64,000 nt of DNA from Candidatus Multivoradales bacterium. Lineage in GTDB: Bacteria > Acidobacteriota > Thermoanaerobaculia > Multivoradales > JAHEKO01. Location of the stretch: positions 224,001 through 288,000 of the forward strand of contig CBDCVR010000014.1 in assembly GCA_965223155.1 (NCBI GenBank). Direction: 5' to 3'. A model generated the notes under the pieces. It did no database searches and was not told where the DNA came from. It saw only the letters and a program-made list of their open reading frames with translations. Shown one piece after another: positions 41,891 through 64,000 of the stretch (position 1 is its first letter; every line of letters starts with the position of its first letter). The position numbers were made by a program, and so were the translations under genes.

Positions 41891-42265
<375 letters not shown>

Positions 42266-46862: not shown

Positions 46863-47822
46863 ATGAAAGGCTACCTACGCGCTGCTTCGATCTGTTTGCT
46901 GGCAACGGTCTTCGCGACCGGGTGCCAAAGTCTCGATTCAGGATCCACGGTGGAGAGCCGCCCGAGCGCGAGCGAGGCGGTCGGCACCCTCGCCACCATC
47001 TTGAACGTGGAGCTCGAAGCCTGTGAATCTCGGATCCCGGCCGTCGCCCAAGAGAGCGTCACGACGTTTTCGGAGGATCGGATCAAGAAGACGCTCCACG
47101 GCGTTTGGAAGGGCCGGGTCTCCGGCGAGTACGACGAAAAGTTTCTTGCCGAGGACGGGTACCTGAACGTCGACTACTACATGGTGGTGGATACCGAACG
47201 CTCCGAGGTTCTCGTGATCGAACAGTTCTCGGACGAACGTTCAGCACCCGAGGCTTCCGCCGAGCTCCGCGCTGCCGGCAAGCTGCCGGTCTGGTCGTAT
47301 CTGATGTGCGGCAAGGAACAGTACAAGCCAGCCCACCCGCGGCAGATCCACGAGTTCCAGAAGGTTTCGAACGACACCGACGACGCCCGCGGCCTGCTGG
47401 GGAACTCGACCGGGCTCCGCATCGCCGATGCCGACTTCAAGGAACGCGGCCTGGTGATCTCCGACGCCTGGGAACAGCTCGTCGCCGGTCAGTACTTCGA
47501 CAACCGGCGCTTCCCGGCCTACGCCGGGGGCCTGTTCAAGCCCTTCGAGATCCGAAACAAGGTCAACGACCGGGGCGTCGGCGTCTTCGAGATGCGCTTC
47601 GACACCGAGCTGCGCGGCGGCGGCGGCACCGCCGCCGAGTTCGAGTCGGGCGTCCCCATCCACGGCTGGGAGACGGGCCAGTTCGTCGGCGTCTCGACCG
47701 GATCAGGAGACTTCTTGATCGCCTCGGCCAGCAATGGGGCCGAGTGGAAGAAGGTCTCCACCTCCGGCGGCATCATCGACGTGTTCTTCGAGAAAGTCGT
47801 CATCGGCCCGCTGGCCGAGTGA
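46863..47822 (+). CDS. Unknown lipoprotein, paralog B
   Basis: RBS AAGGAG, ATG 46863, ATGC lipobox; shares motif blocks with 37854-38864. Confidence 0.8.
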   Translation: MKGYLRAASICLLATVFATGCQSLDSGSTVESRPSASEAVGTLATILNVELEACESRIPAVAQESVTTFSEDRIKKTLHGVWKGRVSGEYDEKFLAEDGYLNVDYYMVVDTERSEVLVIEQFSDERSAPEASAELRAAGKLPVWSYLMCGKEQYKPAHPRQIHEFQKVSNDTDDARGLLGNSTGLRIADADFKERGLVISDAWEQLVAGQYFDNRRFPAYAGGLFKPFEIRNKVNDRGVGVFEMRFDTELRGGGGTAAEFESGVPIHGWETGQFVGVSTGSGDFLIASASNGAEWKKVSTSGGIIDVFFEKVVIGPLAE

Positions 47823-50269
47823 CCCGGACGCCGCCCGCCGGCCTTCTCCCGAACTCCCGACTCCGGCCCCACGGGCGGCTCATCCGCTCGTGGGGCGGCG
47901 TCGTAACGCTCGCGCTCGCGCTGCCGGCCGGAGCGCTTCTCGGCATCGCCTCGCCTCGCGCGGGACTCGCTACCGAGTCCCCACTCGACCTTCGCCGCGG
48001 TCGGGAGCTCTTCGAGACCACGATCCGGCCTCTCTTCTCGCGCCACTGCATCGAGTGTCACGGTAGCGCCAAGGCTCGCTCCGGTCTTGACCTCTCGACG
48101 CGCGAGACCTTGCTCACCGGCGGCGACCATGGTCCTTCCGTGGTGCCCGGAGCGCCGGATGCGAGCCCGGTTCTCGAGTACCTTCGCCACCGGGCCGAGC
48201 CGTTCATGCCGCCCGAGCGGCCACCTCTTCCCGAAACGGCGATCGAGGCCCTGGCCGACTGGATCCGGCTGGGCGCGCCCTACGGCAGCCGCCTGGGAAC
48301 GGCGGGGCCGTCTCCGGCAGGGTCCGGTGATCCCCTCGCCGGTCTGCCCGACGCCGAGCTCCCCGCGGGCTCTCTTGCCTCCGATGCCTCGGCTGTCTCC
48401 GTTGTCTCTGATGGTTCCAAGACCTCGGATACCCCCTGGGCCTTCGCGCCGCTTGCCAACCATCCCGACGGCACCACCCTTGACGGCCTGGTGGCGACCG
48501 GCTGGGCCGAGCGCGGCGCGACGCCGGCGCCCGAAGTCCCGAAGGCCGTGCTCGCCCGGCGCCTCCACTTCGACACCATTGGCCTGCCTCCGGCCCCAGA
48601 TGACCTGGCCGCCTTTCTCGCCGACGACTCCCCGGGAGCCTATGAGGCACTCGTGGACCGTCTCCTGGCCAGCCCCCACTTCGGAGAGCGATGGGCGCGC
48701 CACTGGCTGGACGTCGCGCGTTTCGCCGAGAGCCACGGCTTCGAGCACGACTACGACCGGGCCGGGGCGTTTCACTACCGCGACTTCGTCATTCGAGCCT
48801 TCAACGCCGACATGCCTTTCGACCGTTTCGTCCGCTGGCAGCTCGCCGGCGACGAGCTCGCACCCGAAAATTCTTTGGCTCTCGTGGCCACCGGCTTCTT
48901 AGCCGCCGGCGTCTATCCCACCCAGCTCACCCTGGCCGACGCCGAGAGGATCCGCTACGACGCGATGGACGACATGCTGGCGACGACCGGTGTCGCTCTG
49001 CTCGCCACGACCATCGGCTGCGCCAGGTGCCATGACCACAAGTACGACCCGATCTCGGCCGACGAGTACTACGCGATGTTGAGCGCCTTTACGACCACGA
49101 TCCGGAGCGAGATCGCGGTGGACCTGCCGGCAGGGCCGGTGCCCGCCGCGTCCGTCGCCGCCGATCCCGGGGATCTCGACGGTGCGAGTCCGGGGGCTCC
49201 CGGCACGCGGGCTCCGACCAGGATCCTGATCGCCAGCGAAGGGCCGCATCTGCGGCCCCTGCCGCTGCACAAAAGCAACCGCTCGATCCCGGACTTCTAT
49301 CCCGCGACCTACCGGCTCCAGAACGGAGATCCCGCAAGCAAGCTGGGCGAGGCCCGCCTGGGCTTCCTCAGCGGCTTGACTCGTAGCCCGAACCTCGGAC
49401 CGTGGCGCGCTCCCTCCGCCGACGCCAGGACCTCAGGGCGTCGGGCTGCCCTCGCCCGCTGGATCACGGACACCGAAGCGGGAGCCGGACATCTGCTGGC
49501 CCGGGTCATCGTCAACCGCGTCTGGCAGCACTACTTTGGGCGCGGCATCGTGGCCACGCCTAACGATTTCGGCGCCCAGGGGGCTCGGCCCACCCACCCC
49601 GAGCTGCTCGACTTCCTGGCCCGGCAGCTCATCGACTCCGGCTGGCGGCTGAAGCCGATCCACAAGCTGGTCCTGATGAGCCGGCTCTACCGCCTGGGGC
49701 CGCATCCCGACCGACCGGGTCCGGGCTCGAGCTCCGAGCCGGAAGCCGGCCGCGAGGCCGAATCGGACCCCGACCACGCGCATCTGTGCCACCGTCACCC
49801 CCGGCGGCTGGAGGCCGAAGCCATCCGCGACGCGGCCCTGGCGGTTTCGGGGCTCCTCGATCGGAGCCTGTACGGCCCGGGGACCCTCGACGAGGCCGGG
49901 CGGCGGCGGAGTCTCTACTTCACCGTTAAACGCAGCCGGCTCGTTCCCAGCATGCAGATCCTGGGCTGGCCGGACACCTTGACCAGCCTCGGACACAGGA
50001 CCGTGACCACCAGCCCGAGCCAAGCTCTGCTGATGTTGAACCATCCGGCCTTCCGCGGCATGGCCCGGGGGTTCGCCGAGCGGATCGCAGCCAGTGCCGA
50101 CGTCATCGGCACCGCCTTCCTGACCGCCTTCTCGCGCCCGCCCTCGGCGCGCGAGCGGGCCTTGGCCGAGGACTTTCTTGGAGGCGCCGGCGGGGACGAG
50201 ATCCCGGATGCCCTGGTCGACTTCTGCGCCGCCCTCCTGGCCTCGAACGAGTTCGTCTATGTCGACTAG
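47819..50269 (+). CDS. Planctomycete cytochrome c / DUF1549 (PSD1) / DUF1553 protein
   Basis: CIECH, HFGERWARHWLDVARFAES, CARCHDHKYDPI, ARVIVNRVWQHYFGRG, PTHPELLD, RRLEAEAIRD. Confidence 0.9.
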   Translation: MTRTPPAGLLPNSRLRPHGRLIRSWGGVVTLALALPAGALLGIASPRAGLATESPLDLRRGRELFETTIRPLFSRHCIECHGSAKARSGLDLSTRETLLTGGDHGPSVVPGAPDASPVLEYLRHRAEPFMPPERPPLPETAIEALADWIRLGAPYGSRLGTAGPSPAGSGDPLAGLPDAELPAGSLASDASAVSVVSDGSKTSDTPWAFAPLANHPDGTTLDGLVATGWAERGATPAPEVPKAVLARRLHFDTIGLPPAPDDLAAFLADDSPGAYEALVDRLLASPHFGERWARHWLDVARFAESHGFEHDYDRAGAFHYRDFVIRAFNADMPFDRFVRWQLAGDELAPENSLALVATGFLAAGVYPTQLTLADAERIRYDAMDDMLATTGVALLATTIGCARCHDHKYDPISADEYYAMLSAFTTTIRSEIAVDLPAGPVPAASVAADPGDLDGASPGAPGTRAPTRILIASEGPHLRPLPLHKSNRSIPDFYPATYRLQNGDPASKLGEARLGFLSGLTRSPNLGPWRAPSADARTSGRRAALARWITDTEAGAGHLLARVIVNRVWQHYFGRGIVATPNDFGAQGARPTHPELLDFLARQLIDSGWRLKPIHKLVLMSRLYRLGPHPDRPGPGSSSEPEAGREAESDPDHAHLCHRHPRRLEAEAIRDAALAVSGLLDRSLYGPGTLDEAGRRRSLYFTVKRSRLVPSMQILGWPDTLTSLGHRTVTTSPSQALLMLNHPAFRGMARGFAERIAASADVIGTAFLTAFSRPPSARERALAEDFLGGAGGDEIPDALVDFCAALLASNEFVYVD

Positions 50270-51779
50270 GCAGGATCCCGCCGGCGAGCGGCACGAGCAC
50301 TGCGGCCGGATCGCGCCGACCTTCACCCGCCGGGAGGCCCTACGCCTGGCGGGCGGCGGCATGGGCATGCTGGCGCTCAACACCCTCCTTGCCCAATCCG
50401 GCCTGGCCACCCCCGGCCTGGCCACCCCCGGCTCGGCCACACCCGGCTCGGCCGTCGCGGCCCGGCGCCCGGCCGGGTCGCGGAATTGGTCCGCGCGCGC
50501 GGATTCGGTGATTTGGCTCTTCATGAACGGCGGACCGAGCCATCTCGACACCTTCGACTACAAGCCTGCTCTAGCCCGGGCCACCGGTCAGACGCTCGCC
50601 GGCTTCGACAACGCCACCGCCTTCTTCGACCAGCAGGTAGGGCCGCTCCTCGGATCACCCTTCCCTTTCCGGCAGCACGGTGAGAGCGGCGCCTGGGTCT
50701 CGTCCCTCTTCCCCCATCTCGCCCGGCAAGTGGACAAGATCGCGTTTCTCAAGTCCTTTCGAACCAGGACGAACAACCACAGTCCCGCCATGTTCATGGC
50801 CAACACCGGCGTGCCGCGCATGGGCAGACCGTGCGTCGGAAGCTGGGTGACGTACGGTCTGGGCACCGAGAATCGAAACCTGCCGGCATTCGTGGTCATG
50901 AGCGACCCGCTGGACCGGGGCCTGCCCAAAGGCCACGCCGCGAACTGGAGCAACGGCTTCCTGCCCGGCGCCTACCAGGGGGCCTGGCTCCAGCCGAAGG
51001 GGGCGCCGATCGCCAATCTCGATCGCCCGGCCGGCCAAAGCGACCGGCGCCAGCGGCGTCAGCTCGACCTCTTGCAGAAGCTCAACGCCCAGCACCATCG
51101 CCGGCGGCCCTTCGAACCGGACCTGGCGGCGCGGATCGAGAGCTTCGAGCTCGCCTACCGGATGCAGAGCGAAGCGCCCGACTGCTTCGAGCTCGACGGC
51201 GAGCCCGACTCCATCCACGAGCTCTACGGCACTCGGGACGAGCGCTGCGCCCACTTCGGCCGCCAGTGCCTGCTGGCGCGGCGCTTGGTGGAACGGGGCG
51301 TTCGCTTCGTCCAGATCTACTCCGGCGGCACCGCCAACTCGCGCAGCTGGGACGGTCACAACGACATCCGCAAGAACCACTCCCAGTTCGCCGGCGAGAC
51401 CGATCGTCCGATCGCCGGCCTGCTCGCGGATCTGGATCAGCGGGGACTGCTGGATCGAACCCTGGTGGTCTGGGGCGGCGAGTTCGGCCGCCTGCCGGTC
51501 TCCCAGCTCTCCGACGGAGAGCCCACCGGTCGAGACCACAACCCCCACGCCGGCTGCTACTGGATGGCCGGTGGCGGCATCCGCGGCGGAGTCTCGTACG
51601 GCGAAACCGATGAGCTCGGCCACAAGGCGGTTACCGATCCGATCGAGATCCACGACATCCACGCCACGCTCCTGCATCTGCTGGGCTTGGATCACGAACG
51701 CCTGACCTATCTCCACAACGGCCGGCGCTATCGCCTGACCGACGTCGCCGGCCGGGTGCTCCGCGAGGTCTTGGCCTGA
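50259..51779 (+). CDS. DUF1501 protein with Tat signal
   Basis: TRREAL, LFMNGGPSHLDTFDYKP, LLARRLVERGVRFVQ, WDGH, GEFGR, RDHNP, RLTDVAG. Confidence 0.92.
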   Translation: MSTRQDPAGERHEHCGRIAPTFTRREALRLAGGGMGMLALNTLLAQSGLATPGLATPGSATPGSAVAARRPAGSRNWSARADSVIWLFMNGGPSHLDTFDYKPALARATGQTLAGFDNATAFFDQQVGPLLGSPFPFRQHGESGAWVSSLFPHLARQVDKIAFLKSFRTRTNNHSPAMFMANTGVPRMGRPCVGSWVTYGLGTENRNLPAFVVMSDPLDRGLPKGHAANWSNGFLPGAYQGAWLQPKGAPIANLDRPAGQSDRRQRRQLDLLQKLNAQHHRRRPFEPDLAARIESFELAYRMQSEAPDCFELDGEPDSIHELYGTRDERCAHFGRQCLLARRLVERGVRFVQIYSGGTANSRSWDGHNDIRKNHSQFAGETDRPIAGLLADLDQRGLLDRTLVVWGGEFGRLPVSQLSDGEPTGRDHNPHAGCYWMAGGGIRGGVSYGETDELGHKAVTDPIEIHDIHATLLHLLGLDHERLTYLHNGRRYRLTDVAGRVLREVLA

Positions 51780-53266
51780 CCCCGAGCGGAGCGAGCGCCA
51801 GGGCGCAGGGCGTCACTGGAAGCTCCGAACGCTCCGGGGCGGACGCCAGCGGTCACGACAGACCCGACGGAGGCCGCCCTCAGCCCGGCCGGTCGCGAGC
51901 CGACGTCTTCGACACCCTCGACGCCACCGGCCTGGCCCGAGGCATCGCCCGCGGAGAGTTCTCGAGCTCCGAGCTCGTGGAACACTACCTCGGCCGGATT
52001 CGACAGCGAAACGGCGACCTCCAAGCGTTCGTCAAGGTCTTCGAGCGGCGTGCCCAACGCAGCGCCGGCCGCAAGGACCGGAAGATCCGGGGCAACCCGA
52101 CTCTGGACGCGTTCCACGGCGTCCCGATCGGCGTCAAAGACCTCAACCTGGTCCGCGCCTCCGTGGCCCGATTCGGCTCGCGGGCGGTACCGCCGATTCC
52201 ATCTCCCATCGACGACCGTACGGTCTCCCGGCTGCGCGCGGCCGGCTTCGTCCTGTTGGGGAAGACCGCCACCAGCGAGCTCGGTGCCATGCCTGTGGTC
52301 GAGCCCCGCACTCATCCTCCGACCCGCAATCCCCACGACCTCGACCGGTCGGCGGGCGGCTCCAGCGGGGGATCCGCCACGGCGGTGGCCGCGGGCCTGC
52401 TACCCATCGCCCACGGCAACGACGGCGGCGGCTCGATCCGCATCCCCGCCGCGTTCTGCGGCGTCTTCGGCTTCAAGCCTTCCCGCGGCCTCCTGGCCAA
52501 CCCCTACGGTCTGAACCCGACCCGATGCCTGTACACCTGCGGCGCCATCGCCCGTTCCGCCCGCGACCTACGCAACCTCACCGGCGCCATGCTGCCGGCG
52601 GGCCAGGAGCCCCTGGCGCGGAACGGATCCCGCCACCGCCGGCTGGTCATCCATCAAGTCGTGACCAGCGCCGTCGCCGCCACCACGAGCGAGGCGGTGG
52701 CCGCGGTCGAAGCCATCGGCCGGGTTCTGGCAGACCTCGGCCACGCGGTCCGAGCCCAGCCCCGGTTCGAAGGAGCCTTCGAGGACTTCCTTCCCCTCTA
52801 CCAGCACCTCCTGGCCGGGTTCAGACTGCTCCCGAAGCGCCGCCTGGAGCCAACGACCGCCTGGCTCTGTCGGGAGGGCCGCCGGATCCCCGAGACTGAG
52901 GCGAGCCGCCGGCACAGCGCCCTCGAACGAGACATCGACACCTGGCTGGGCGCGGCCGACATCGTGGTGAGTCCGACCGTCGGCTCGCCGCCACCCGCCA
53001 TCGGCGCCTGGAGCGCTCTAGCGCCCGGCGAAGCCTTCTTCGAAGCCGCCCGGCTCGGCGCCTACACCGCCCTCTACAACGTCGCCGGCATGCCGGCGGC
53101 CACGATTCCCGCCGGCTTCGATCGTTCCGGCTTGCCCCTCGGAGTCCAGGTCGCCGGCCGCCGGGGCACCGATGCCCTCGTCCTGGATCTGGCCGAGACC
53201 CTGGCCGACGCCGGCGCGATCCCGCTGCTGGCGCCGCTTGCCAGGGTCGCCGGCGAACAGACTTAG
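51776..53266 (+). CDS. Amidase (amidase-signature family); start uncertain
   Basis: [31 protein letters not shown]. Family-like sequence ([15 protein letters not shown]) extends upstream of the first canonical start at 51977; in-frame CTG at 51776. Confidence 0.88.
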
Positions 53267-53280
53267 CAGTCTGGGAGAAG
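53266..53280 (+). promoter_or_regulatory. Island operator motif, copy 7
   Basis: TTA-GCAGTCTGGGAGAAG; CAGAGT 21 bp downstream. Confidence 0.72.
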
Positions 53281-53321
53281 CCGCCGGACGCGCGCCCCCG
53301 GCAGAGTTTCCGGGGACGCGT

Positions 53322-54155
53322 ATGACGATCCGTGGCTCGACCTCTATCAAGACACCTCAACGGCCGACTCTGGCCGAGGCCGTTTGCCAGGGATTTCAGA
53401 CCCTGCCGGAAGGCTGGTCGGTAGGAAGCGCCGACACGCGGCCGAGGCTCGAGCGGGCCTGCCGGCTTCTCTACCGCGAGTACCTCGAGCGCGGGTACTG
53501 CGCGCCCAGTCCCTGGCGGCTCCACTACTCGCCGCATATGTTCGGTGAGCGGTCCAGGACGTTCGTCCAAACCGCCTCGGGCACGGTCCAGGGCACCCTC
53601 AGCATCTTCCCGGACGACGCCCAGGGCCTGCCTCTCGAATCCCTCTACCGGCGGGAGATCGACGACCTGCGCGGGCGCGGCCTGGGCTTGGCCGAGATCG
53701 GTCTCCTGGCGTGCCGCGGCGGACCGGGCCAGGCGCCCGACGCTGGAGCCCGGCTGCAAAGCCTCTTCCTGCTCTTCAAGATCGCGGTCAGCTACGGCCG
53801 CTCGCTCGGGATCTCCCATCTCCTGATCGCCATCCACCCCCGGCACCGCCGGCTCTACGAGTCCCTGGGCTTTCTCAAGATGAGCAAGGTGCGCAGCTAT
53901 CCGGCGGTCCGCGGCCACCCGGCGCTGCCCATGCTGCAAGACCTGGGAAAGGAGACCGAGGAAGCCGACGGCGCCGTACGCCGCTTCTTTCTCGGCAACC
54001 CCGTTGCCCCCGAGCGCTTTCGGCGCTCTCTTGACGGTGGCGACGATCCGTTTGCCGAGCTCTTTGGAGACACCTTCCATGCCTGGCGCCGGCGCAGGCG
54101 CGCACCGGTCGAACGGCACGCGCCTGCGGTCGCTTTGCAACCCGGCACGCTCTAG
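53322..54155 (+). CDS. FeeM-like N-acyl amino acid synthase (GNAT fold)
   Basis: RLLYREYLERGY, GTLSIFPD...GLPLESLY..EI..LR, IAIHPRHRRLY..LGF. Confidence 0.72.
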   Translation: MTIRGSTSIKTPQRPTLAEAVCQGFQTLPEGWSVGSADTRPRLERACRLLYREYLERGYCAPSPWRLHYSPHMFGERSRTFVQTASGTVQGTLSIFPDDAQGLPLESLYRREIDDLRGRGLGLAEIGLLACRGGPGQAPDAGARLQSLFLLFKIAVSYGRSLGISHLLIAIHPRHRRLYESLGFLKMSKVRSYPAVRGHPALPMLQDLGKETEEADGAVRRFFLGNPVAPERFRRSLDGGDDPFAELFGDTFHAWRRRRRAPVERHAPAVALQPGTL

Positions 54156-54164
54156 GAGGCACCC

Positions 54165-55544
54165 ATGCGCAGATTCGTCCTTCTCATGCTGCTCGTCGCC
54201 TCGGTGGCCTCGGCCGCCACCCACCCGGGGCTGCGCAACCTCATGTCCAAGGCGTACTCGCCGTCGGTGATCGACGCCCACCTCTTCGACAACCTCTGGC
54301 GGTCGTGGGAGGCGCCGGCCCGGGAGGCGGCGCGCCAGGCGGCGCCCGCGCAACGCAGAGCCATGACCCTGGATCGATACGGCCTGCTGGAGGCCCCCTA
54401 CCCCAACGGAGGCGCGCCGCTCGGATTCGTGGTCAAGGACGACGGCACCTGGGCCATGACCTGCCTCATCTGCCACGCCGGTTCGGTCGAGGGCCGCACT
54501 GTGCTGGGACTGCCCAACAACGCCCTCGACTTCAGCTCGATCTACGAAGACATCGGCCAGACGGTAACGATGCTGCACGGCGATGAGCCCGGCGCTCCCG
54601 ACTTCCCGCAGGGACTCCTGACCTTCGCCAGCCCCGAGAATCCGGGTACCGTGCACTTTCCGGAGGGACTCTTGAGCGTCTCCCGCGGCACTGTCAATTC
54701 CTTCACCTTTAGCGTCTACTTCCTGTCGCTGCGCGACCAAGACCTCAACCTGCGCGACGCCCCGCTGGACCTGCCGCGACTCAATCACTACCTCGACGCG
54801 CCGCCTCTGTGGCACACCGCCAAGCGGGCTTCGTTCTACTCGGACGCTTTCGCCGAGAAGACGGTCCGGCCGCTCATGCAGTTCTCGCTCGATCCGTCCT
54901 TCGGGCCCGAAGTCTTCAAGGCCTGGGAGGCCGACTACGTCGAGATCTTCGATTGGCTGCACACCCTCGAAGCGCCGCGCTACTCCGGACCGGTCGATGC
55001 GGCCGCGGCCTCGGCCGGAGCCGGGATCTACTCGGAGCATTGCTCCAAGTGCCACGGAATCCCGGGTCCAGAAGGCGACTACGAGAACAAGGTCGTTCCG
55101 GTGGGCAAGGTGCGTACCGACCGAGCCCGCCTGGACGGCCTGGCGCCCGAGTTCCGGCGCCACCTCGGCGAATCCTGGCTCGGCGCCTACGGAGAAACCC
55201 GAATCGACACCGCGCCCGAGGGCTACACACCGCCGCCGCTCGACGGCATCTGGGCCACGGCTCCCTATTTCCACAACGGCTCGGTCCCCACCCTGTTCCA
55301 CGTGCTCTTCCCAGCCGAGCGCCCGGTGGTCTGGAGGGTCACCGACTACGCCGCCTACGATCATCGACGGATGGGGCTCACGATCGAGGAGTACGACCGC
55401 CTGCCCGCGACCCAGGGGCGGTCCGACGCTCGCGCCTTCTACGACACGAATCGGTTCTCGATGAGCGCCGGCGGACATCCTTTCGCCGACGAGCTGGACC
55501 GGAGCCAGCGCCTGGATCTACTCGAGTATCTGAAGACGCTCTAG
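54165..55544 (+). CDS. Secreted diheme c-type cytochrome, RoxA-like
   Basis: Signal peptide, TCLICH and CSKCH, PPLW, PPLDGIWATAPYFHNGSVPTL, GH.F...LLEYLKTL. Confidence 0.82.
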   Translation: MRRFVLLMLLVASVASAATHPGLRNLMSKAYSPSVIDAHLFDNLWRSWEAPAREAARQAAPAQRRAMTLDRYGLLEAPYPNGGAPLGFVVKDDGTWAMTCLICHAGSVEGRTVLGLPNNALDFSSIYEDIGQTVTMLHGDEPGAPDFPQGLLTFASPENPGTVHFPEGLLSVSRGTVNSFTFSVYFLSLRDQDLNLRDAPLDLPRLNHYLDAPPLWHTAKRASFYSDAFAEKTVRPLMQFSLDPSFGPEVFKAWEADYVEIFDWLHTLEAPRYSGPVDAAAASAGAGIYSEHCSKCHGIPGPEGDYENKVVPVGKVRTDRARLDGLAPEFRRHLGESWLGAYGETRIDTAPEGYTPPPLDGIWATAPYFHNGSVPTLFHVLFPAERPVVWRVTDYAAYDHRRMGLTIEEYDRLPATQGRSDARAFYDTNRFSMSAGGHPFADELDRSQRLDLLEYLKTL

Positions 55545-55571: not shown

Positions 55572-56114
55572 TCAGCGCGAGCTCCCGGCAGGCTCGGGCG
55601 CCTCGGCCGGCTTGATCGAGGCATGGGCATGGACGATCCGCCAGGGCCCCTCGGGTCGAGCCCGGGAGAAGACCAGAGTCTCGGCGGTCTCGACCACTGA
55701 CGCCTCTTCGCCCACCCGGGTTTCGAAGTCTCCGCGGTAGCGGGCGAAGGCCATGGTCCCTTCCGGCGCCACGAAGACCTCGACGTCCCGCAGACGCCAC
55801 GACTCGACGGTCATGTCCTCGCCGGCGAGAAGCGCCACGTAGTCGTCCTTCCCGAATTCGACGGCGCCATCGGTGTAGAGAACGAACTCGCGGGCCATGA
55901 GGTCGCCGACGCCATCCCAGTCCCCGCGCTCGGCCAGAACAAAAAAGCTCTCGACCGCCCGTTGGACCGCGCTTCGCGCCTCCCCGAGCGCCGCGTCGAG
56001 CTGGGGCTTGGCGTCCGCGCCTGAAGCCGGGCCGCCGGACGCGGCCAGCACGACGAGCATCGAGACGACCCCGACGATCCGTGCCGGTATCGTGACTTGC
56101 CTAGACTGCTGCAT
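55572..56114 (-). CDS. Secreted NTF2-like (DUF4440/SgcJ-like) protein
   Basis: Signal peptide, GDWDGV..L, C-terminal WRIVHAHAS; overlaps the P450 stop. Confidence 0.72.
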   Translation of the reverse strand: MQQSRQVTIPARIVGVVSMLVVLAASGGPASGADAKPQLDAALGEARSAVQRAVESFFVLAERGDWDGVGDLMAREFVLYTDGAVEFGKDDYVALLAGEDMTVESWRLRDVEVFVAPEGTMAFARYRGDFETRVGEEASVVETAETLVFSRARPEGPWRIVHAHASIKPAEAPEPAGSSR

Positions 56115-57561
56115 CAGTACTCCTCCTTGGGGTTGGGTGTCTGAGCTCGGCCGGCGCGCGCGCGTCGAGTCGCAGCTCGAGGGCCGGATCGGGTCTCAGA
56201 GTGAGCGAGGCCTTCGCCGCCGGCGCCGGTCCAGCCGGACGCAGACGGAAGAGGCGGACGATCGCGGCAACCACGACCGTCGCCTCCAGGAGCGCGAAGC
56301 GACCGCCCAGACACGCCCGCTCGCCCGCGCCAAACGGCAGGAAGCAGCCGCGGGTGGCGGCGTCCTGCCCGGACCCCAGGAAGCGCTCCGGCGCGAACTC
56401 CTCGGGCCGGTCCCAGAACCGGGGGTGTCGATGGAGGCTCCAGATCCCCAACAAGACGTCGGTGCCGGCGGGGATCCGGTAGCCGCCAATCCGATCGGAT
56501 CGAATCGCGCGGCGCGTGATCATCCAGATCGGAGGGAACAGCCTCAGGGCCTCGTGCAGAACGGCCTTGAGGTACGGCAGCCGCTGGAGAGCGTCCGGAG
56601 GAACAGGTGCGGAACCGAAAGCGGCGGCAAGCTCGCCCGCCACCCGATCCTGCGCTTCGGCGTGGCTCGCCAGCAGCCAGCAGACCCAGGACAGCCAAGC
56701 GGCCGTGGTGTCGTGCCCGGCCAGAAGAAAGGTCAGGAGCTCCTCGACGGGAAGCTCAGCGTCTCCGTCTTCACCGTCGGCGGCTCGAATCGATCGCAAT
56801 AGCTGTCCGCCAGCCACCGCGCCGCCAGCCTCTGTGCGGGACAGCAGTCCACGGGCTACGACGCGAACCCGACACAGCGCCCGGCGGGCGGCGCGATTCG
56901 CCGGAGTTGGTACCGCCAGCGGTATGCGCAGGGGCGCGGCCATCCGGTCCATCGCCCAGTCTCCCAACCGGGAAAGCTCGCGCGCCAGCTCCGGGGCGTC
57001 AGCTGCCAGATCCACGCCCAGCAGCGTCCGGCCCAGAATTTCGAGCGTCAGCCGATCCAGGTCGTCGCCGACCGCGACCGTCTGGCCCTCCCGGGCCGGG
57101 CCGCTCCAGCGCCCGAGCATGGCCTCCGCCAGCGCCGCCATCTCCGGAACGTAGTCTCCGAGACGATCCGGGCCGAAGGCCGGCCGCAGCCGGCGGCGCT
57201 GACCGGCGGCCCGAGCGGCTGAGCTAGTCAAGGGTCCTCGTCCCAGAAAGGGTCGGGCTTCGGCCAGCCCCAGGCCCTTTTCGTACCGGCCGGGCTCTTC
57301 CCCAAGCACGCGCCGCAAGTGCTCGGGATCCCGGAGCAGCAGCAACCTGCGCCCGGGCATGCGAAACGCCACGACGTCTCCAAACTCGGCAAAGGCCCGG
57401 TCCACGAACGCCAGGCGATCGCTGCGGACCTCGGCCAGAGACCCCACGAGCCGGCGGCCGCGGGGTCCGGGGACCGCCCGCCATGGGCGGGCCGGAGCCC
57501 GGGCCGATCCGCCGGCCGCGGAGGTGCGAGCGCCGAGAGCCGGCGTTCCGAGGCCGCTCAC
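56101..57561 (-). CDS. Cytochrome P450
   Basis: LAGHDTT I-helix, EALRLFPP, F.PERF, FLPFGAGERACLG. Confidence 0.95.
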   Translation of the reverse strand: MSGLGTPALGARTSAAGGSARAPARPWRAVPGPRGRRLVGSLAEVRSDRLAFVDRAFAEFGDVVAFRMPGRRLLLLRDPEHLRRVLGEEPGRYEKGLGLAEARPFLGRGPLTSSAARAAGQRRRLRPAFGPDRLGDYVPEMAALAEAMLGRWSGPAREGQTVAVGDDLDRLTLEILGRTLLGVDLAADAPELARELSRLGDWAMDRMAAPLRIPLAVPTPANRAARRALCRVRVVARGLLSRTEAGGAVAGGQLLRSIRAADGEDGDAELPVEELLTFLLAGHDTTAAWLSWVCWLLASHAEAQDRVAGELAAAFGSAPVPPDALQRLPYLKAVLHEALRLFPPIWMITRRAIRSDRIGGYRIPAGTDVLLGIWSLHRHPRFWDRPEEFAPERFLGSGQDAATRGCFLPFGAGERACLGGRFALLEATVVVAAIVRLFRLRPAGPAPAAKASLTLRPDPALELRLDARAPAELRHPTPRRSTDAAV

Positions 57562-58001
57562 GCCGCGACCCCATTCGCCTGGTACCGGACCAAGGCCCGG
57601 TGCAGCGACTCGGGGATTGGCGCCGGGACGTACTCGTCGCCGGCGCGGCGCATGACCACGACCTGCTGCTCTCCCCGGGCCACGAGCTCCTCGGCGCCGC
57701 CTTCGCGAGCCTTGCGCCGGTACTCGAAAGCGAGCGTGATCCGGTTCTGCACCATCTCCTTCAAGCTCATGCGTACCAGGACCTCGTCGAAAGCGACGAG
57801 CTCTGAGGCGTACTCACACGAACAGCGCGACGTCAGCAGGCCCAGATCTCGAGCCAGCTCATCGAGCACGTCGGGACAGTGGTCGCGCAAGAACATCTCC
57901 CGGCAGCGGCCCTGCCAGCTCAGGAAGTTCGAGTAGTACACGTTGCCGACCAGGTTGGTCTCCTGAAACCCCACCACATGGGAGTACTCGTAGTAGCGCA
58001 T
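57558..58001 (-). CDS. Hot-dog-fold thioesterase of enediyne type (E10 / SgcE10 / DynE7 / CalE7-like)
   Basis: YYEYSHVVGFQETNLVGNVYY..FLSWQGRCREMFL, CEY..EL..FD, LVARGEQ. Confidence 0.92.
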   Translation of the reverse strand: MRYYEYSHVVGFQETNLVGNVYYSNFLSWQGRCREMFLRDHCPDVLDELARDLGLLTSRCSCEYASELVAFDEVLVRMSLKEMVQNRITLAFEYRRKAREGGAEELVARGEQQVVVMRRAGDEYVPAPIPESLHRALVRYQANGVAA

Positions 58002-58057
58002 GCGGCCTCAGGAAGGGATCTCGGGGAGCGCCGCGGCTTGCCAGGAGACGGCCCGGG

Positions 58058-58954
58058 TCATCGGCCCGGTCCCCCACCAATCCGCCCGCTATCCCGTCCC
58101 GGGCTTGCTTCCGACCGCTTCGACGCCATGCGCCGCGCCAGCAGCAGCGGCAGCGCGAGCAGGATCGGTGGATCCGTGGGCAGCGACTCGCGCAGCACCA
58201 GATCGGTATCGCCGATCAGACGCCCACCGCTGACCACGACCGAGCGCTCAGTCGAGCCCGCCCGCAGCGCGTTTTCGTACAGCAGGTAGTCCCTGGGGTC
58301 CGAGGACCAGGAGAGGCCGAGTCCCAGGAGGTGGTACTCGCCATCGGGCAGCGTGGGCAGCCGGTAGGACCCCGGCCGGGTCACGAGGGCGCAGGCCTCG
58401 GGCTCGGTCTGAGGAACCGCTCCCTCGAAGAGGCCCACGAAAATCAACCCGTCAAAGCCGTCCGGGGCCTCGATCCGGCCGGCAGCGGGCCCTTCCGCCG
58501 CGAAGCCGCCGCCACGCGCCCGCCCTCTGCGCAAGCAGTCCACCGCCGCGCCCGCGTCCTGCCGGCTGAGCCGCCGGAAGTGGCTGGGAGCCAGTCCCAC
58601 CAGCTCGGCGAAGCGCCGGGTAAACGTGCCCAGGCTGCTGTAGCCGACCTCGAGCGACACGTCGGTGACGCTCATCTCCGACTCCAGCAAGAGACGCTTG
58701 GCGCTGGCCAGCCGCAACGCGGTCAGGAACCGGCACGGCGGCACACCGGTCACCTCCTTGAACACCCGATTCAGATGGAACGGGCTCATGATGGCGACGT
58801 CGGCCATCTGTTTCAGCGAGAACTCTTCGTCCAGGTTCTTCTCCATTTCGCCAACAAGGCGCTCGATCGCCGTGCGGTAGAAGGAGTCCGTCTCGGCGCG
58901 GTGCACCGGCGGCTGGGACGGAGTCGCGATCGCGGATTGGACCATTTCAGACAT
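58058..58954 (-). CDS. AraC-family regulator (enediyne R2-like)
   Basis: MSPFHLNRVFKEVTGVPP.RFL..LRL..AK.LL, VGYSSLGTF..RF; C-terminal IFVGLF...P...P..C domain. ATG 58954 overlaps the PKS stop. Confidence 0.9.
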   Translation of the reverse strand: MSEMVQSAIATPSQPPVHRAETDSFYRTAIERLVGEMEKNLDEEFSLKQMADVAIMSPFHLNRVFKEVTGVPPCRFLTALRLASAKRLLLESEMSVTDVSLEVGYSSLGTFTRRFAELVGLAPSHFRRLSRQDAGAAVDCLRRGRARGGGFAAEGPAAGRIEAPDGFDGLIFVGLFEGAVPQTEPEACALVTRPGSYRLPTLPDGEYHLLGLGLSWSSDPRDYLLYENALRAGSTERSVVVSGGRLIGDTDLVLRESLPTDPPILLALPLLLARRMASKRSEASPGRDSGRIGGGPGR

Positions 58955-61900
58955 CGATGGCTCCCTCTTCATGAACGAACGTGAACGTCAACGGTGCCGG
59001 TCCGCCCCGGAGCGAGGTGGCGTAGCTGGCCAGCGCGCGAGTCCCGGAGCGCAGCGCCAGCCAACCGTCATCCTCGGAACGGACCAGCGTCAACGGAGCG
59101 GTGGCCGGAAGGCCCACCTTGCGCAGGCACTCCAGGGCCGTCCAGACCCGCGTTCTCGCGGTCGCCAGATCCTCGTGGCAGAGATCGGCGATTCTGCCGG
59201 CGAGGTCGAGCCGCTCCCAGGACAGAATCTCCGCCCAGTCCTCGTCGGCTCGTGACACGACCGGTTCGAGATCGCATCCGACCTCGTCTGCGGCGCGGAT
59301 CGCCAGCGTCACACCGTCGGCATGCGCAATCGAGATTCCGCCGCGGCCGCCACCGCCGCCACCCTCGTCGGACAGCAGGAGTTGGGGCCTGCCGTCGGGC
59401 CGGTAGCGCAAGGTTTCTCCGGACCCGAGCAGGCGCTCCAGAGCCCGTTCCTTGGCACCTTCCCGATCTAGGCTCTCGGTCGGCGCGACCGACACCGCCA
59501 GGTCCGGTGCGGACAGCAGGTCCTCGAGACGCCGTTCCAGATATGGCCGCAGGGTCGCGGCCGGCCAGCTCGTCTCCGGAGCCCGGGGGGCCGCGATGCG
59601 CAGCTCGAGGCCGTGCCAGCGCTCCCGCACCAGGCCGTCGGCACCCACGATTTCGAGCTGGTAGAAGAGGCTGTCGCCATCCCGGCGGAGCTCGGTCGCC
59701 TCCACCTCCCAGGACTCTTCGGCCGGCAACGAGCCCGTCTCGATGCGATCGACGCCCACCGGCAAGACGGTGGCGTGTGGGATCGAGGCTTGAACGCTGT
59801 GAATGGCGGCGTCGCGCGCGGCCGGATCCCCCAACACCAACCCCGCAGGCAGATAGCGGCCGAACCAGGCGACGGCGCCGTCGGCGCCGATGGCTGCCCG
59901 GGAATGGTGGGCGCTGAGCTGCCGGTAGCCAGTGACCCGCTGGAACCTTCCGGTTTGAAAGAGACATCCGCCGTAGAGATCGGTGCCGGGATCGAGAGCC
60001 AGGAACTCCTCCGTGCAGGCCGGCGCCTGAGGCGCCGGCTCGGGCCGATCGAAGCGACAGCGAGCACGGAAGTGATCCACGTCGAACCCGGTGGCCGCGC
60101 TTCGAACTACGACTTCGATGATTTCGGGCGCGGTGCGCAAGCCGGCGATCCGCACCTTCAAGGGTCCGTCCTCGGGAACCTGCAGCGCCCGCTCGAAGCG
60201 AACGGCCTCCAGGACGGGCGGACGGTCGGCGCCCTGGATGGCCATGGCGACCTGGCAGATGGCCTCGAGGCCCAGGACCGCGGGCACCAGCGGCGCGCCC
60301 AGAACCACGTGGTCGGCAAGATAGGGATCGGTCTCGACCGCGAGCTCGGCATCGACCACCAATTCGACTCCGGGATAGTGAAGCCGAGGGAACTCCAGAA
60401 ACCGCCGGAGCGGGAGTCTCCCGGTCTCGCGCTCGAGGGTCGGCAAGTCCCCCATCCGCCCAGCCACGACGCAGCGACCACCGACCTCGCACCTTCCTTC
60501 GAGCAGCTCGTTCAAGATCCGGACCCCGTCATCGACCCCGATGGGACTGATGCCCTGGCGGGCCAACGACTCCACCGTGCCGAGGCGCTCTCCCATCCCG
60601 GCTCCGGCCCAGATCGACCAGTCGATGGTCAGCGTCCGGCAGGCTGGGTGGTCTCGTCCGAACGCCTCCAGGCAAGCCGCCATCCACTCGTTGGCCAGGC
60701 CGTAGTGGGACTCCCCGGCCAGTCCGGTCCGCGCGATAAGCGAGCCGAACGCCACCACCAGCCGCAGGCGCTCGGGATCGAGGGCCGCCAGCAGGTTTCG
60801 GAGGCCCTCGACCTTCGGCGCCAGCGCCTGCGCGAACGCCCCGAGGTCCAGGGTCGAGAGCAGACCGGGCCTGTTCGAGCCGGCGCCGTGAAGGAGTGCC
60901 GTGATCTCGCCCAAGTCTTCCCGAGCGGTGGCCAGGGCGCGCGTCACCCCGGCCGGATCGCAAACGTCGACCGGCAGATAGCGGAACCGGGCTCCAAGCG
61001 AGCGGAGCCGGTCCAGGTTGGCCGCCAGCTCAGTGTCGTCGCCGGGATCGGACCGGCCTAGAAGAGCCAAGGCCGCGCCGTAGCGCCGGCCGAGCTCGAG
61101 GGCGCATTCCGCGGCGATTCCCTTGCCGCCGCCGCTCACCACCACGACGTCGTCCCGGCCAAGGACCGGAGTCTTGGCAACGATACCGTCTTTCGCCAGG
61201 CGCAGCACCGGGACCCGCCGATTGCCGGACCGGTCGTAGCGCGCATGCACGAAGCCCTCGGCCGATCGAGCCTCGGCCACGATCCAATCCAGAGCACCCT
61301 CGGCACTCTCGGGAATCTCGACCACGCAGGTCGCTGTCGGCTCCGTTTCCAGATGGAACGACCGGGCGAACGACGCCGCGAGCGTTCGGTGCTGGACGAT
61401 CAAGAGCCGGTCATCGCCCGATGCTTCCACCTCCCGAACGGCCTGGAGAAGGAGGCCTAGGGACTCCGAGTCTGGACCCTCGGGGAGATAGACGGCGGTT
61501 CCCGAGCCACGGCCGGAGGCGGCAAGCGCCCGTTGCAGATCGCCCGCGAACTCGGTGTCTGGCGGCGCCACGACCCGCCACCTTCCCCGCTCTCTCGCCG
61601 TACTTTCTGGTCCCCGGGCCGGCCGCCGAACCGGCAGTGGGCGCTCCTCGAAAGCCACCACGAAGGGACGAACCCAACTGCCGACTCCCGCGGGAGTCGC
61701 CCCGCTTTCGAGGTCCGCGACCCCGGTCGCCCCAACCTCATCCAGGAAGCCCGCCAGCTCGGCAATCGAAAAGGTCGCCAGGTCGGTGGGCAGAGTGAGA
61801 TCGCCGAGACCCAGCTCGCGCGCCGCCCGCATCGCGACTTGGGTCACCCGGATCGAGCTCAGGTGGAGATCTTCCAGCAAGCGCTGGTCCTCGGCCAAGG

Positions 61901-64000
61901 TCTCAGCGGGCAAGTCCAGCTCGCTCGCGACCAGACCTCGAACCAGCTCCAGGGAGCCGCGTCCGACCGAGGTCTCGGTCGGGAGTTGAGCCGGCCGCGG
62001 CGGCGGTTCCGACTCCGGCGCGGCCGGGCTTCGGCGGCGCGCCGCCCGCGGTCTCCGCGTTGCGGCACCGGCCGCCGCCTCGCAGGGACTCGGCAGAAAG
62101 ACCGGTTCCCTCTCGAAATCGAAGGGCTTGAAGAAGCGGCCCTCGAACAGCCCCTTGGTCCGGACCGGGGCGCCCAGGGTCCAGGCGGTAGCTACAGCCT
62201 CGAGCAGACCCAGGAGGGTGTCGGAGCCGGCATTGACGCTCACCGCTCGAGCGCTCCCGCAGGCCTCCGCCAGCCGGCTCAGGACGCTGCCCGGACCCAG
62301 CTCCAGCCAGAGATCGACGCCCTCCCGCTCCGCTCGCTCGATGGCCTGCTGGAAGCGCACCGGTGCCTCGAGCTGGCCGAGGAGCAGTCCTCTCGGAGAG
62401 CCATCAGCGGCGACCGTCTCCCCGGTCACCGTCGAGACCGCCGTTCGGGCCGGCGGACGCATCGCCTCATCCGCAAGCAACGCCTCCAGCGGACCGCGCA
62501 GGCTCGTCATCAGCGGCGAATGAAACGCGTCGGCAACTTCGAGCCGCGTGACGGTCCGATCCCGGCGCCGCGCTCGCTGCACCAGGCGATCGATCGCCGC
62601 CAAGGGCCCGGAAACCACCGTTTGGCTGGGTCCGTTGAACGCCGCCACGACAAGGTTCAGTCCCGCGATCAGCTCAGCGGCCTCGGCGGCCGGCGCCGAG
62701 ACACTCGCCATTCCGCCACGAGGCCCCTCTCGTTCGGCCATTATCCGACCGCGGGCGCGGGCGATCCGCAGAGCCCCCGCACGGTCGAAACAGCCTGCCC
62801 AGTGAAGCGCACAGAGCTCGCCCAAGCTGTGACCAACGGCGACGTCAGCGGCGAGCCCGAGCCGGTCCGCCAAGTCCAGGGCCGCTAGCGACCGTCCTAC
62901 GATCGCCGGTTGGATCTCCCCCGGTCCGCGCTCGGGCCGGCCCGCCTCGAGCCAACCGGCCAGCTCCGGGAACCGCCGGGCCCAGAGCCGGGAGCCTCGC
63001 GCCGCCAGCGATCCTTGCCCCGGGAACAGAAAACCGAGACGGGGCGCCCGGTCTCCGGCATCCCCGAGCCACCAGCCGCGGCCGTGCTCCAGGCGGTCCG
63101 CGGCTTCTTCCTCGGTTCGGGTCTCGAGCCGCGCCAGCATCCGGGTCAACCGCTTCACCAGCTCGCTCGGCCGTTCGGCGACCGCGGCGGCCCGCAAGGG
63201 GCCTCTTCCCGCAACGGTTCCCGCGCCGGCGGCGAGCTCGGCTGCCATGTCGGTCAGCTCGGCCTCCGAGCAGTGCGCCGCGGAGCGGCGCAGGACCGTC
63301 AGGCGATCTCGCAACTCTTCCCGAGACGTGGCGTCGACCAGGAAGAGCTCGGTTCCCTGGGGCGCAGTCCGGCACAAGCCATGACCGGCGCCGACACTCG
63401 CTCCGACGGACCGAACCGGAGCCTCGACGGTGACGTGAACGTTGATTCCGCCGAACCCCATCGAGCTCACCGAGGCTCGGCGCGCTTGTTCTTGGGGCCA
63501 GTCCTCGGCGGCGTCGAGCACGCGTAGCGCGGCGCTCCGGCCAGTCAGGAGCGGGTGCGGCTCCCGGCAGCCGGTCGTCGGCGGCAGGACGCCGTGTTCG
63601 AGGGCCGAAACCGCCTTGAGCAGACCAGCGGCCCCGGCCGCGGCCTTGGTGTGGCCGATATTCGCCTTCACGGATCCGAGAGCCGCGCCGAAGACCGGGC
63701 CGGCGGCCGACTGCCGCGCCGAACCCTCGCCGCGGGTCAGCTCGGACGACAGAGCCTCCAGCTCCACGGCATCGCCGACCGGCGTCCCGGTGCCGTGCCC
63801 CTCGAAATAGCCGACCGACTCCATGGAATAGCCGGCCATCTCGTAGGCCCTTCTGAGCGCCAGACGCTGTCCCGCGACCTCGGGCCGGGTAATCCCCCCC
63901 GAACCGTCCGAGGAGATGCCCCAGCCGCGCAACAGGGCTCGTATGGGCCGATCGGCGGCGCGGGCGTCGGACTCGCGCATCAGCACGAACATGCCGCAGC
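58947..64000 (-). CDS. pksE: Enediyne-type iterative type I polyketide synthase (5' truncated by the window)
   Basis: KS (EGHGTGT.VGD, KANIGHTKAAAG), AT (FPGQGS, GHSLG, AFHS), internal ACP (LLEDLHLSSI), KR (GGGKGIAAECA, HYGLANEW), DH (YLADH, LYGG.LFQ..RF, DPAARD..IH), C-terminal PPTase (GCDLEPV, TRVWTALECLRK). Confidence 0.93.
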   Translation of the reverse strand, partial: CGMFVLMRESDARAADRPIRALLRGWGISSDGSGGITRPEVAGQRLALRRAYEMAGYSMESVGYFEGHGTGTPVGDAVELEALSSELTRGEGSARQSAAGPVFGAALGSVKANIGHTKAAAGAAGLLKAVSALEHGVLPPTTGCREPHPLLTGRSAALRVLDAAEDWPQEQARRASVSSMGFGGINVHVTVEAPVRSVGASVGAGHGLCRTAPQGTELFLVDATSREELRDRLTVLRRSAAHCSEAELTDMAAELAAGAGTVAGRGPLRAAAVAERPSELVKRLTRMLARLETRTEEEAADRLEHGRGWWLGDAGDRAPRLGFLFPGQGSLAARGSRLWARRFPELAGWLEAGRPERGPGEIQPAIVGRSLAALDLADRLGLAADVAVGHSLGELCALHWAGCFDRAGALRIARARGRIMAEREGPRGGMASVSAPAAEAAELIAGLNLVVAAFNGPSQTVVSGPLAAIDRLVQRARRRDRTVTRLEVADAFHSPLMTSLRGPLEALLADEAMRPPARTAVSTVTGETVAADGSPRGLLLGQLEAPVRFQQAIERAEREGVDLWLELGPGSVLSRLAEACGSARAVSVNAGSDTLLGLLEAVATAWTLGAPVRTKGLFEGRFFKPFDFEREPVFLPSPCEAAAGAATRRPRAARRRSPAAPESEPPPRPAQLPTETSVGRGSLELVRGLVASELDLPAETLAEDQRLLEDLHLSSIRVTQVAMRAARELGLGDLTLPTDLATFSIAELAGFLDEVGATGVADLESGATPAGVGSWVRPFVVAFEERPLPVRRPARGPESTARERGRWRVVAPPDTEFAGDLQRALAASGRGSGTAVYLPEGPDSESLGLLLQAVREVEASGDDRLLIVQHRTLAASFARSFHLETEPTATCVVEIPESAEGALDWIVAEARSAEGFVHARYDRSGNRRVPVLRLAKDGIVAKTPVLGRDDVVVVSGGGKGIAAECALELGRRYGAALALLGRSDPGDDTELAANLDRLRSLGARFRYLPVDVCDPAGVTRALATAREDLGEITALLHGAGSNRPGLLSTLDLGAFAQALAPKVEGLRNLLAALDPERLRLVVAFGSLIARTGLAGESHYGLANEWMAACLEAFGRDHPACRTLTIDWSIWAGAGMGERLGTVESLARQGISPIGVDDGVRILNELLEGRCEVGGRCVVAGRMGDLPTLERETGRLPLRRFLEFPRLHYPGVELVVDAELAVETDPYLADHVVLGAPLVPAVLGLEAICQVAMAIQGADRPPVLEAVRFERALQVPEDGPLKVRIAGLRTAPEIIEVVVRSAATGFDVDHFRARCRFDRPEPAPQAPACTEEFLALDPGTDLYGGCLFQTGRFQRVTGYRQLSAHHSRAAIGADGAVAWFGRYLPAGLVLGDPAARDAAIHSVQASIPHATVLPVGVDRIETGSLPAEESWEVEATELRRDGDSLFYQLEIVGADGLVRERWHGLELRIAAPRAPETSWPAATLRPYLERRLEDLLSAPDLAVSVAPTESLDREGAKERALERLLGSGETLRYRPDGRPQLLLSDEGGGGGGRGGISIAHADGVTLAIRAADEVGCDLEPVVSRADEDWAEILSWERLDLAGRIADLCHEDLATARTRVWTALECLRKVGLPATAPLTLVRSEDDGWLALRSGTRALASYATSLRGGPAPLTFTFVHEEGAIDV

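Follow-up and report, generated by a model that had tools for sequence, protein, structure and literature searches.

An enediyne-type polyketide synthase minimal cassette, very probably intact, in a Thermoanaerobaculia chromosome

The DNA examined here, hereafter the window, is a stretch of 64,000 nucleotides (G000:C14:224001-288000) located on a 1.33-Mb contig of the 4.0-Mb genome, 98.7% complete, of a Candidatus Multivoradales bacterium. Its last part, from 55572 to 64000, is packed with five minus-strand open reading frames (ORFs), identified in the ORF listing and by Pfam scans, which a sequence-only reading had described as a polyketide synthase cassette of the enediyne type. Together with three genes lying past the window end, they very probably form, judging from sequence, an intact and self-contained minimal cassette, organized as one eight-gene operon around an enediyne-type polyketide synthase (PKSE) in a Thermoanaerobaculia chromosome. 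According to the available text of PMC9992847, the minimal cassette is defined as PKSE, a thioesterase (TE) and three genes of unknown function. The roles of the latter, E3, E4 and E5, and the steps leading from the polyene to the enediyne core are described as unknown both there and in the available text of PMC9682884.

Layout of the operon

The genes are listed below in the order of transcription, with the small gene preceding them at the end. Window coordinates past 64000 are extrapolated onto contig C14, and the corresponding contig positions are given in parentheses.

67751-68701 (C14:291751-292701), minus strand: E3/UnbL-type DUF1702 protein, 316 aa, first gene of the operon (PF08012)
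65737-67719 (C14:289737-291719), minus strand: E4/UnbV-type FG-GAP protein, 660 aa (Pfam)
64826-65740 (C14:288826-289740), minus strand: E5/UnbU-type membrane protein, 304 aa (homology)
58947-64829 (C14:282947-288829), minus strand, crossing the window end at 64000: PKSE, iterative type I polyketide synthase (Pfam)
58058-58972, minus strand: AraC-family regulator, 304 aa, with an N-terminal helix-turn-helix (HTH) domain (HTH_18, E 1e-23, residues 56-134)
57558-58001, minus strand: E10-type hot-dog TE, 147 aa (matches to CalE7, SgcE10 and DynE7)
56101-57561, minus strand: cytochrome P450, 486 aa (PF00067, E 1.4e-64)
55572-56114, minus strand: NTF2-like protein (DUF4440/SnoaL_3), 180 aa, last gene of the operon (Pfam)
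69038-69424 (C14:293038-293424), minus strand: small AraC-HTH gene, 128 aa, of uncertain membership (HTH_18, E 4.5e-22)

Inspection of start sites and reading of the contig define an operon of about 13.1 kb, in the order E3-E4-E5-PKSE-AraC-TE-P450-NTF2, in which six of the seven junctions are closely joined. E3 and E4 are separated by 29 nt, E4 and E5 overlap at an ATGA and E5 and PKSE at a GTGA. PKSE and AraC overlap by up to 26 nt, AraC and TE are 56 nt apart, TE and P450 share a GTGA start/stop overlap, and the P450 stop and the NTF2 start overlap by 14 nt. The start codon of E4 is GTG, with GAAGGAG ahead of it. The five ORFs within the window are present at their stated coordinates, and the overlapping or close spacing that had been noted for the AraC, P450 and NTF2 genes is borne out at the start sites.

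On the downstream side the operon meets convergent plus-strand genes. On the other side, the small AraC-HTH gene is located 336 bp upstream of E3 on the same strand, and a plus-strand gene lies beyond it. A scan of the operon for promoters and terminators gave signals at or below chance. Proteins E3, TE and P450 are predicted to be soluble and E5 polytopic, while E4 and the NTF2-like protein carry N-terminal export or anchor segments. The PKSE contains the sole ketosynthase (KS) of polyketide synthase type in the 4.0-Mb genome, the other KS match being FabF-like.

The synthase, the thioesterase and the core genes

The full PKSE is 1960-1987 aa long, its database form having 1960 aa. A Pfam scan of the entire protein locates KS at 31-447, acyltransferase (AT) at 666-886, acyl carrier protein (ACP) at 989-1035, ketoreductase (KR) at 1255-1435 and dehydratase (DH) at 1516-1778, in longest-ORF coordinates, which is the order that had been read from the letters; the part contained in the window matches Ketoacyl-synt_C, AT, PP-binding, KR and DH. 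The C-terminal tail, of about 200 residues, matches neither a Pfam model nor, directly by phmmer, a PDB entry. When a profile built on the tails of 18 PKSE proteins was used, the top PDB match was Sfp phosphopantetheinyl transferase (PPTase), at a weak E of 0.27, with the motifs GKP, SxxH, GxDxE and WxxxExxxK in register with Sfp and invariant in the PKSE family. The PPTase placed at the C-terminus by the sequence-only reading is therefore supported by the top match and the aligned motifs, and left without support by Pfam.

Conservation was evaluated on an alignment of 18 sequences in which the window PKSE is the first row, and which it therefore matches at every invariant residue. Among these are C212, H345, H393, S668, S992, Y1376, H1507, D1853 and E1855, which, from motif context, we take to be the active sites of KS, AT, ACP, KR, DH and PPTase.

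Relatives were collected by scanning 185,579 species genomes with the PKSE alignment, which yielded at least 544 relatives among at least 590 matched stretches, the genome of the window being excluded from the list. The best 80 loci were fetched, 34 of them non-actinomycete and 46 belonging to the actinomycete clade. Among the proteins, identity to the window PKSE does not exceed 52% in the matches listed, the best 120 of 7758 from a search of 5.8 billion proteins. These 120 bear labels such as Gemmataceae, Acidobacteriota, Pyrinomonadaceae, Thermoanaerobaculia, Blastocatellia, Cyanobacteriota, Scytonema hofmannii and Tautonia rosea, and for many of them the source already gives the name 'enediyne polyketide synthase'.

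In a KS tree, 85 PKSE rows (84 plus the window) stand opposite 10 PfaA-like and 2 FabF-like KS, on a branch with an SH-aLRT support of 99.7; the outgroups consist of PfaA-like KS from the same order and of FabF-like KS, with modular cis-AT and trans-AT KS left aside. The window KS falls on the PKSE side, that is within the enediyne clade, on which the sequence-only reading had made its proposal depend. A polyunsaturated fatty acid (PUFA) synthase, or another polyketide synthase, was considered and rejected on the KS tree and the gene neighbours. In a tree of KS-AT regions, non-actinomycete PKSEs form a separate half, of 39 rows including the window against 46, with support 100. Within this half the window PKSE is joined weakly to Zixibacteria and FCB rows, and sits on the longest branch (0.78, compared to a median of 0.23).

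The core genes E3, E4 and E5 had been described as absent from the window and possibly lying upstream, and all three are located immediately upstream of PKSE past the window end, on the same strand. E3 matches PF08012 (DUF1702) with E 3.1e-88. E4 matches FG-GAP_3 (E 3.7e-28) and UnbV_ASPIC (E 1.8e-7), and its residues 3-21 form a hydrophobic N-terminal signal or anchor. E5 contains several hydrophobic 19-mers and has a weak match to NQR2_RnfD (E 1.4e-5); no dedicated model for it was found among Pfam or NCBIfam, and it is 60-67% identical to the gene located between E4 and PKSE in many non-actinomycete loci.

Other arrangements of these genes were observed. In a genome of the same order (L015, G040:C3:1082000-1101900), E3-E4-E5 and a second E4-like gene occur with no adjoining PKSE, and FabF-like KS genes are found 2-6 kb away on the opposite strand. 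Two further loci (L018 and L019, in genomes G026 and G037) show E3-PKSE-TE without E4 or E5 in between. In a genome of the same genus (G002, loci L012/L113) the order is TE ... PKSE-E3, with a divergent E4-like gene and a PKSE 41-49% identical to that of the window. As L018, L019 and G002 indicate, the 'minimal cassette' is not fixed outside actinomycetes.

The TE matches CalE7 (E 5.3e-44), SgcE10 (4i4j, E 1.6e-41) and DynE7 (E 7e-36). Its assignment to the E10 type of hot-dog thioesterases, as had been proposed, is unambiguous. The comparison of its residues was extended to loci L020-L099 plus L013, L014, L018 and L019. Asn16 and Arg34 of the window TE align with Asn19 and Arg37 of CalE7, and these positions are retained, while Phe26 takes the place of CalE7 Tyr29. 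In the TE alignment the latter position is Tyr in all 46 actinomycete-clade copies; the 33 other non-actinomycete copies have His in 29 cases, Tyr in 2, Leu in 1 and Phe in 1. The change looks like a clade-wide shift in the release enzyme. Asn19, Tyr29 and Arg37 were reportedly the residues mutated by Kotaka et al. in 2009, and Tyr29 is said to have been tied to decarboxylation; if so, the entire non-actinomycete clade may release its chains in a different way.

Accessory genes, host and genomic context

The AraC-family protein had been given a role like that of R2. Full-length homologues, alignable over at least 180 aa, were found in 15 of the 34 non-actinomycete and in 34 of the 46 actinomycete-clade PKSE loci, as for the AraC regulators of enediyne clusters termed SgcR2-type. 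The gene sits here between PKSE and TE, while in other loci it follows TE. PKSE clusters from different phyla share a conserved C-terminal half of this protein, as seen in alignments of 245-275 aa. Its C-terminal 165 aa (residues 140-304; window 58058-58555) match no Pfam model and, in a protein atlas, only unnamed clusters (best score 0.90); a structure prediction from the single sequence was unusable (pLDDT 33).

P450 genes are scarce in the other non-actinomycete loci (2 of 34), as compared to those of the actinomycete clade (31 of 46), where a P450 directly follows TE in 17 of the 46. The nearest relative of the window P450 is found in a Pyrinomonadaceae PKSE locus (L023; 44% identity by tblastn), and identities to the P450s of the 31 actinomycete-clade loci are 33-39%. 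In the P450 tree, the window and L023 proteins lie outside a group, with support 97, composed of the 31-member E7-position clade and of the genome's own unlinked paralogue. Given the length of the branches, orthology to E7 is called unproven. The E7-like role once suggested for this gene accordingly holds by position after TE, and not by membership in the clade of 31 actinomycete-locus P450s.

The NTF2-like protein matches DUF4440 (E 9.7e-12) and SnoaL_3 (E 6.4e-10), and its residues 7-25 form a hydrophobic segment resembling a signal peptide. An AF2 model with a pLDDT of 87.9 has a generic NTF2 fold. The family is small: out of 1.84 billion representatives, 79 match at E up to 1e-3, many of them with signal or lipobox-like N-termini. 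No NTF2-like homologue was found in the 80 other PKSE loci, and a match at E 1e-8 occurs in 54 of 201 genomes of the class, a count that includes the unpublished G082 and G233, on which no other result depends. The 11 best loci besides that of the window show at most 28% identity, 8 of them matching the window protein by tblastn, and none has a P450 within 1.5 kb.

The host had been described as a diderm and not an actinomycete. Its GyrB is 74-83% identical to proteins labelled as Thermoanaerobaculia or Acidobacteriota, which make up eight of the nine organism-labelled rows among the 120 matches listed, the ninth being labelled 'bacterium'. This places the host in the Acidobacteriota, class Thermoanaerobaculia, and thus among diderm bacteria outside the actinomycetes. 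A planctomycete host, suggested by the PSCyt/DUF1501 flanks, is ruled out by the same comparison; the DUF1553/DUF1501 genes that had been reported in the flank are present, as DUF1501 and PSCyt/PSD (DUF1549/DUF1553) genes, at 47105-51779.

The distribution of DUF1702 is patchy. Within the same family, 1 of 24 other genomes contains it; among the other families of the order, 6 of 16 genomes do, and an even sampling of the phylum gave 5 positives in 300 genomes. G002, the sole genome of the same genus with DUF1702, does not share the cassette. Two flank proteins, compared against four genomes of the same genus in order to locate the insertion site, gave weak matches or paralogues only.

Such patchiness, the rearranged cassette of G002, whose PKSE is only distantly related, and the long branch of the window PKSE would suit a horizontally acquired cassette that is now a silent or decaying remnant, devoid of present function. 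All eight ORFs are open, however, every invariant residue of the 18-sequence alignment is kept, and translational coupling is preserved. Moreover, the GC content of the operon (0.68-0.72) is near that of the remaining window (0.64-0.72), and so gives no sign of recent arrival or decay. A remnant is considered extremely improbable.

Further genes in the flank were recorded. A plus-strand row formed by an amidase, a FeeM-type N-acyl amino acid synthase and a RoxA-like dihaem cytochrome c (51977-55544) converges on the end of the operon. Between 39265 and 46672, 9-16 kb off the operon, lie a second NTF2/SnoaL_3 protein with a signal peptide, an NHL-repeat protein, a VOC protein, a homologue of the PltA-like flavin-dependent halogenases and a FAD_binding_4 oxidase. 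The VOC protein (124 aa, 41891-42265), 13 kb away, is bleomycin-resistance-like by a weak match (E ~1e-3). An extended cluster including the genes at 31-55 kb was considered and rejected: the second NTF2, NHL, VOC, halogenase-like, FAD oxidase, PSCyt/DUF1501, amidase, FeeM and cytochrome c genes were compared, and homologues were found in 0 of 84 PKSE loci, bar one weak DUF1501 match.

Recurring gene families were identified by ORF clustering in 38 non-actinomycete loci plus the window genome. PKSE was found in 39, E3 in 35, TE in 33, E4 and E5 in 31 each, AraC in 17 and an MMPL/RND-type transporter in 14, all other families, shadow ORFs aside, being limited to 8 loci or fewer; contig ends cut many loci, and these counts are therefore lower bounds. 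The transporter, of about 760-800 aa, adjoins the cassette in its 14 loci (e.g. L024:7842-10124, plus strand), and its frequency in sister clusters hints at a lipid-like exported product. Two loci carry labels at odds with their position in the tree: a 'Melainabacteria' contig (L093) falls inside the actinomycete PKSE clade, beside Actinophytocola, and a 'Bifidobacteriaceae' contig (L061) falls beside Pedosphaera. These mismatches are probably binning errors, rather than gene transfers.

Possible products and comparison with known systems

Gene content, domain order, conserved residues, translational coupling and predicted topology can be read directly in the operon, while each chemical step of the following scheme is borrowed, by analogy, from characterised PKSE/TE pairs. 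The C-terminal Sfp-like domain would prime the ACP of its own synthase, on which KS, AT, KR and DH would iteratively build a conjugated polyene from malonyl units. The hot-dog TE would then free the chain, which in all pairs tested so far is 1,3,5,7,9,11,13-pentadecaheptaene; the available text of PMC9992847 states that all PKSE/TE pairs yield the same polyene, which feeds 9- and 10-membered pathways. Cytosolic E3, membrane-embedded E5 and exported E4 would process the polyene at the membrane, and P450 could plausibly oxidise or epoxidise it, epoxidation being argued for 9-membered pathways in the available text of PMC9682884. The exported NTF2-like protein would act last, outside the cytoplasm, either on the product or by binding it, and the AraC protein would control the operon.

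Several points weigh against a functional enediyne cassette of the usual kind. The end product may turn out to be something other than a cyclic enediyne. The PPTase assignment of the PKSE tail leans on a weak profile match, and the long branch of the PKSE makes an altered chemistry possible. The TE does not have the Tyr that is uniform among the 46 actinomycete-clade copies, and the P450 does not group with the actinomycete E7 proteins in the tree. No known enediyne self-resistance family (CalC-type, TnmS-type or apoprotein) was found in the eight genes or their immediate neighbours, where Pfam checks only were made. Finally, ORFs of an actinomycete locus of the C-1027 type (L041, Streptomyces globisporus), located at the positions of E6, E8, E9 and E11 and upstream of E3, have no homologue near the cassette.

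As a rival explanation, the cassette may make, instead of a DNA-cleaving cyclic enediyne, a linear hydrocarbon or lipid of the polyene or polyyne type, kept in the envelope or sent to it, the whole non-actinomycete PKSE clade then being a distinct sister system that shares the early steps. This explanation is tentative and falls a little short of an even chance. It agrees with the separate half formed by non-actinomycete PKSEs in the KS-AT tree, with clusters that are short and share few recurring families, and with the TE position at which a uniform Tyr is replaced mostly by His, and by Phe in the window. The lack of known resistance or peripheral-moiety genes within the operon, and the L015 locus, where E3, E4 and E5 lie beside FabF-like KS genes without a PKSE, point in the same direction. 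On the other hand, E3, E4 and E5 are the genes tied most specifically to the formation of the enediyne core in the literature, and all are present and intact. The MMPL exporter is absent from the window cluster, the family counts are lower bounds since many loci are cut by contig ends, and the TE substitution may be neutral.

Conversely, the operon could make a true enediyne core without decorations, or a closely related derivative, with resistance encoded elsewhere in the genome or achieved by export or sequestration. The completeness of the minimal cassette and a P450 placed after TE, an arrangement shared by 17 of 46 actinomycete-clade loci, speak for it. In the available text of PMC9682884, the E7 P450, together with E2, E8, E9, E11, M and J, is counted as a conserved gene of 9-membered clusters, and polyene epoxidation is regarded as supported. 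The VOC protein located 13 kb away might also fit, although neither this gene nor its neighbours were found again in any of 84 PKSE loci, and its bleomycin-resistance match is weak. The other 9-membered-type genes were looked for by comparing high-GC3 ORFs (GC3, G+C at third codon positions) within 10 kb of the S. globisporus PKSE to the whole genome, at E 1e-5. Among the ORFs of these flanks, none corresponding to E2, E8, E9, E11, M or J was matched near the cassette; E-gene names in L041 are assigned by position, and M and J may lie outside its 10-kb flanks. Beyond E3, PKSE and TE, with shadow ORFs over E4 and PKSE, the search gave two weak matches, both on other contigs, to a 182-aa ORF (30% over 135 aa) and to a 368-aa ORF (27% over 277 aa). 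As the P450 also lies outside the E7 clade, and no enediyne from a non-actinomycete bacterium is reported in the available text of PMC10308959, a true core is judged unlikely.

A bolder proposal, which we regard as a long shot, is that the eight genes encode everything needed to make a bare warhead, of the enediyne or polyyne type, in a Gram-negative-type cell. E5, exported E4 and the exported NTF2-like protein would carry out the late steps, at the inner membrane and in the periplasm. The NTF2-like protein would serve as a carrier or stabiliser of the reactive product, a functional analogue of the chromoprotein apoproteins built on a different fold. If true, both an enediyne-class product and a carrier of this sort would be described for the first time outside the actinomycetes.

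Whichever product is made, a probably intact PKSE minimal cassette of this size has a practical value, since its one very small operon can serve as a model of the unsolved post-polyene steps. With a single operon of 13 kb, three extra genes and no other polyketide synthase in the genome, it is a small and clean target for heterologous expression. The clade-wide change from Tyr to His or Phe in TE, and the MMPL exporter, bear on whether the non-actinomycete clade makes enediynes.

Among known systems, PfaA PUFA synthases resemble the window PKSE in its KS, AT and KR regions, which score 456 bits on TIGR02813, a value far under the cut-off of 1010 bits. They differ from it in that the window PKSE has a single ACP, a Sfp-like tail, Unb neighbours and a CalE7-type TE.

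The NTF2-like protein had been compared to SgcJ, and shares with SgcJ/NCS-Orf16 the NTF2-like cone fold, the structure 4ovm being matched to the model by Foldseek with a TM score of 0.70 on the target. The resemblance is confined to the fold: 4ovm ranks 29th, after many unrelated NTF2 proteins, and SgcJ-type PDB chains gave no match to the window sequence at E up to 1. The window protein differs also in having a signal peptide and in belonging to a small family of exported or lipoprotein-like members.

The actinomycete minimal cassette, as represented by L041, contains all five genes and shares with the window both the E3-E4-E5-PKSE order and the order of PKSE domains, including the C-terminal Sfp-like tail. 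The two PKSEs are collinear, with 46% identity over 1980 aligned residues. Identities are 35% for E3, 43% for E4 (660 aa), 45% for E5 (346 aa), 50% for TE, 39% over 257 aa for AraC and 38% for P450. Differences concern the host, which is acidobacterial for the window, the insertion of AraC between PKSE and TE, the size of the cluster (about 13 kb against tens of kb) and the KS-AT sequence, which falls in the non-actinomycete half.

The window cassette also resembles the non-actinomycete PKSE cassettes of Acidobacteriota, Planctomycetota, Cyanobacteriota, Verrucomicrobiota and others, reported in the available parts of PMC10308959 and PMC4480864. The order PKSE-AraC-TE of the window differs from their PKSE-TE-AraC, and the window cluster is without the MMPL exporter present in 14 of 39 loci. 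They belong to the same KS-AT clade and share a compact E3-E4-E5-PKSE-TE(-AraC) layout, and median identities to the window are higher than for actinomycete loci (60% against 47% for E5, 60% against 52% for TE, and 52% against 44% for E4).

The novelty that the sequence-only reading had attached to a non-actinomycete host is overstated, such cassettes having been in print since 2014, and hundreds being present in the scan of species genomes. In the available text of PMC4480864, 50 of 57 predicted producers are actinomycetales, and some clusters are described as 'enediyne PKS cassettes only'. The 2023 survey (PMC10308959) links enediyne KS to six other phyla and, in its available text, mentions compounds only from Actinobacteria and ascidian extracts, and no product of any non-actinomycete PKSE cassette. 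The supplements of this survey and the non-actinomycetales list of PMC4480864 may already name acidobacterial cassettes. The cassette described here is a new, divergent member of an already mined class, and not a new kind of system.

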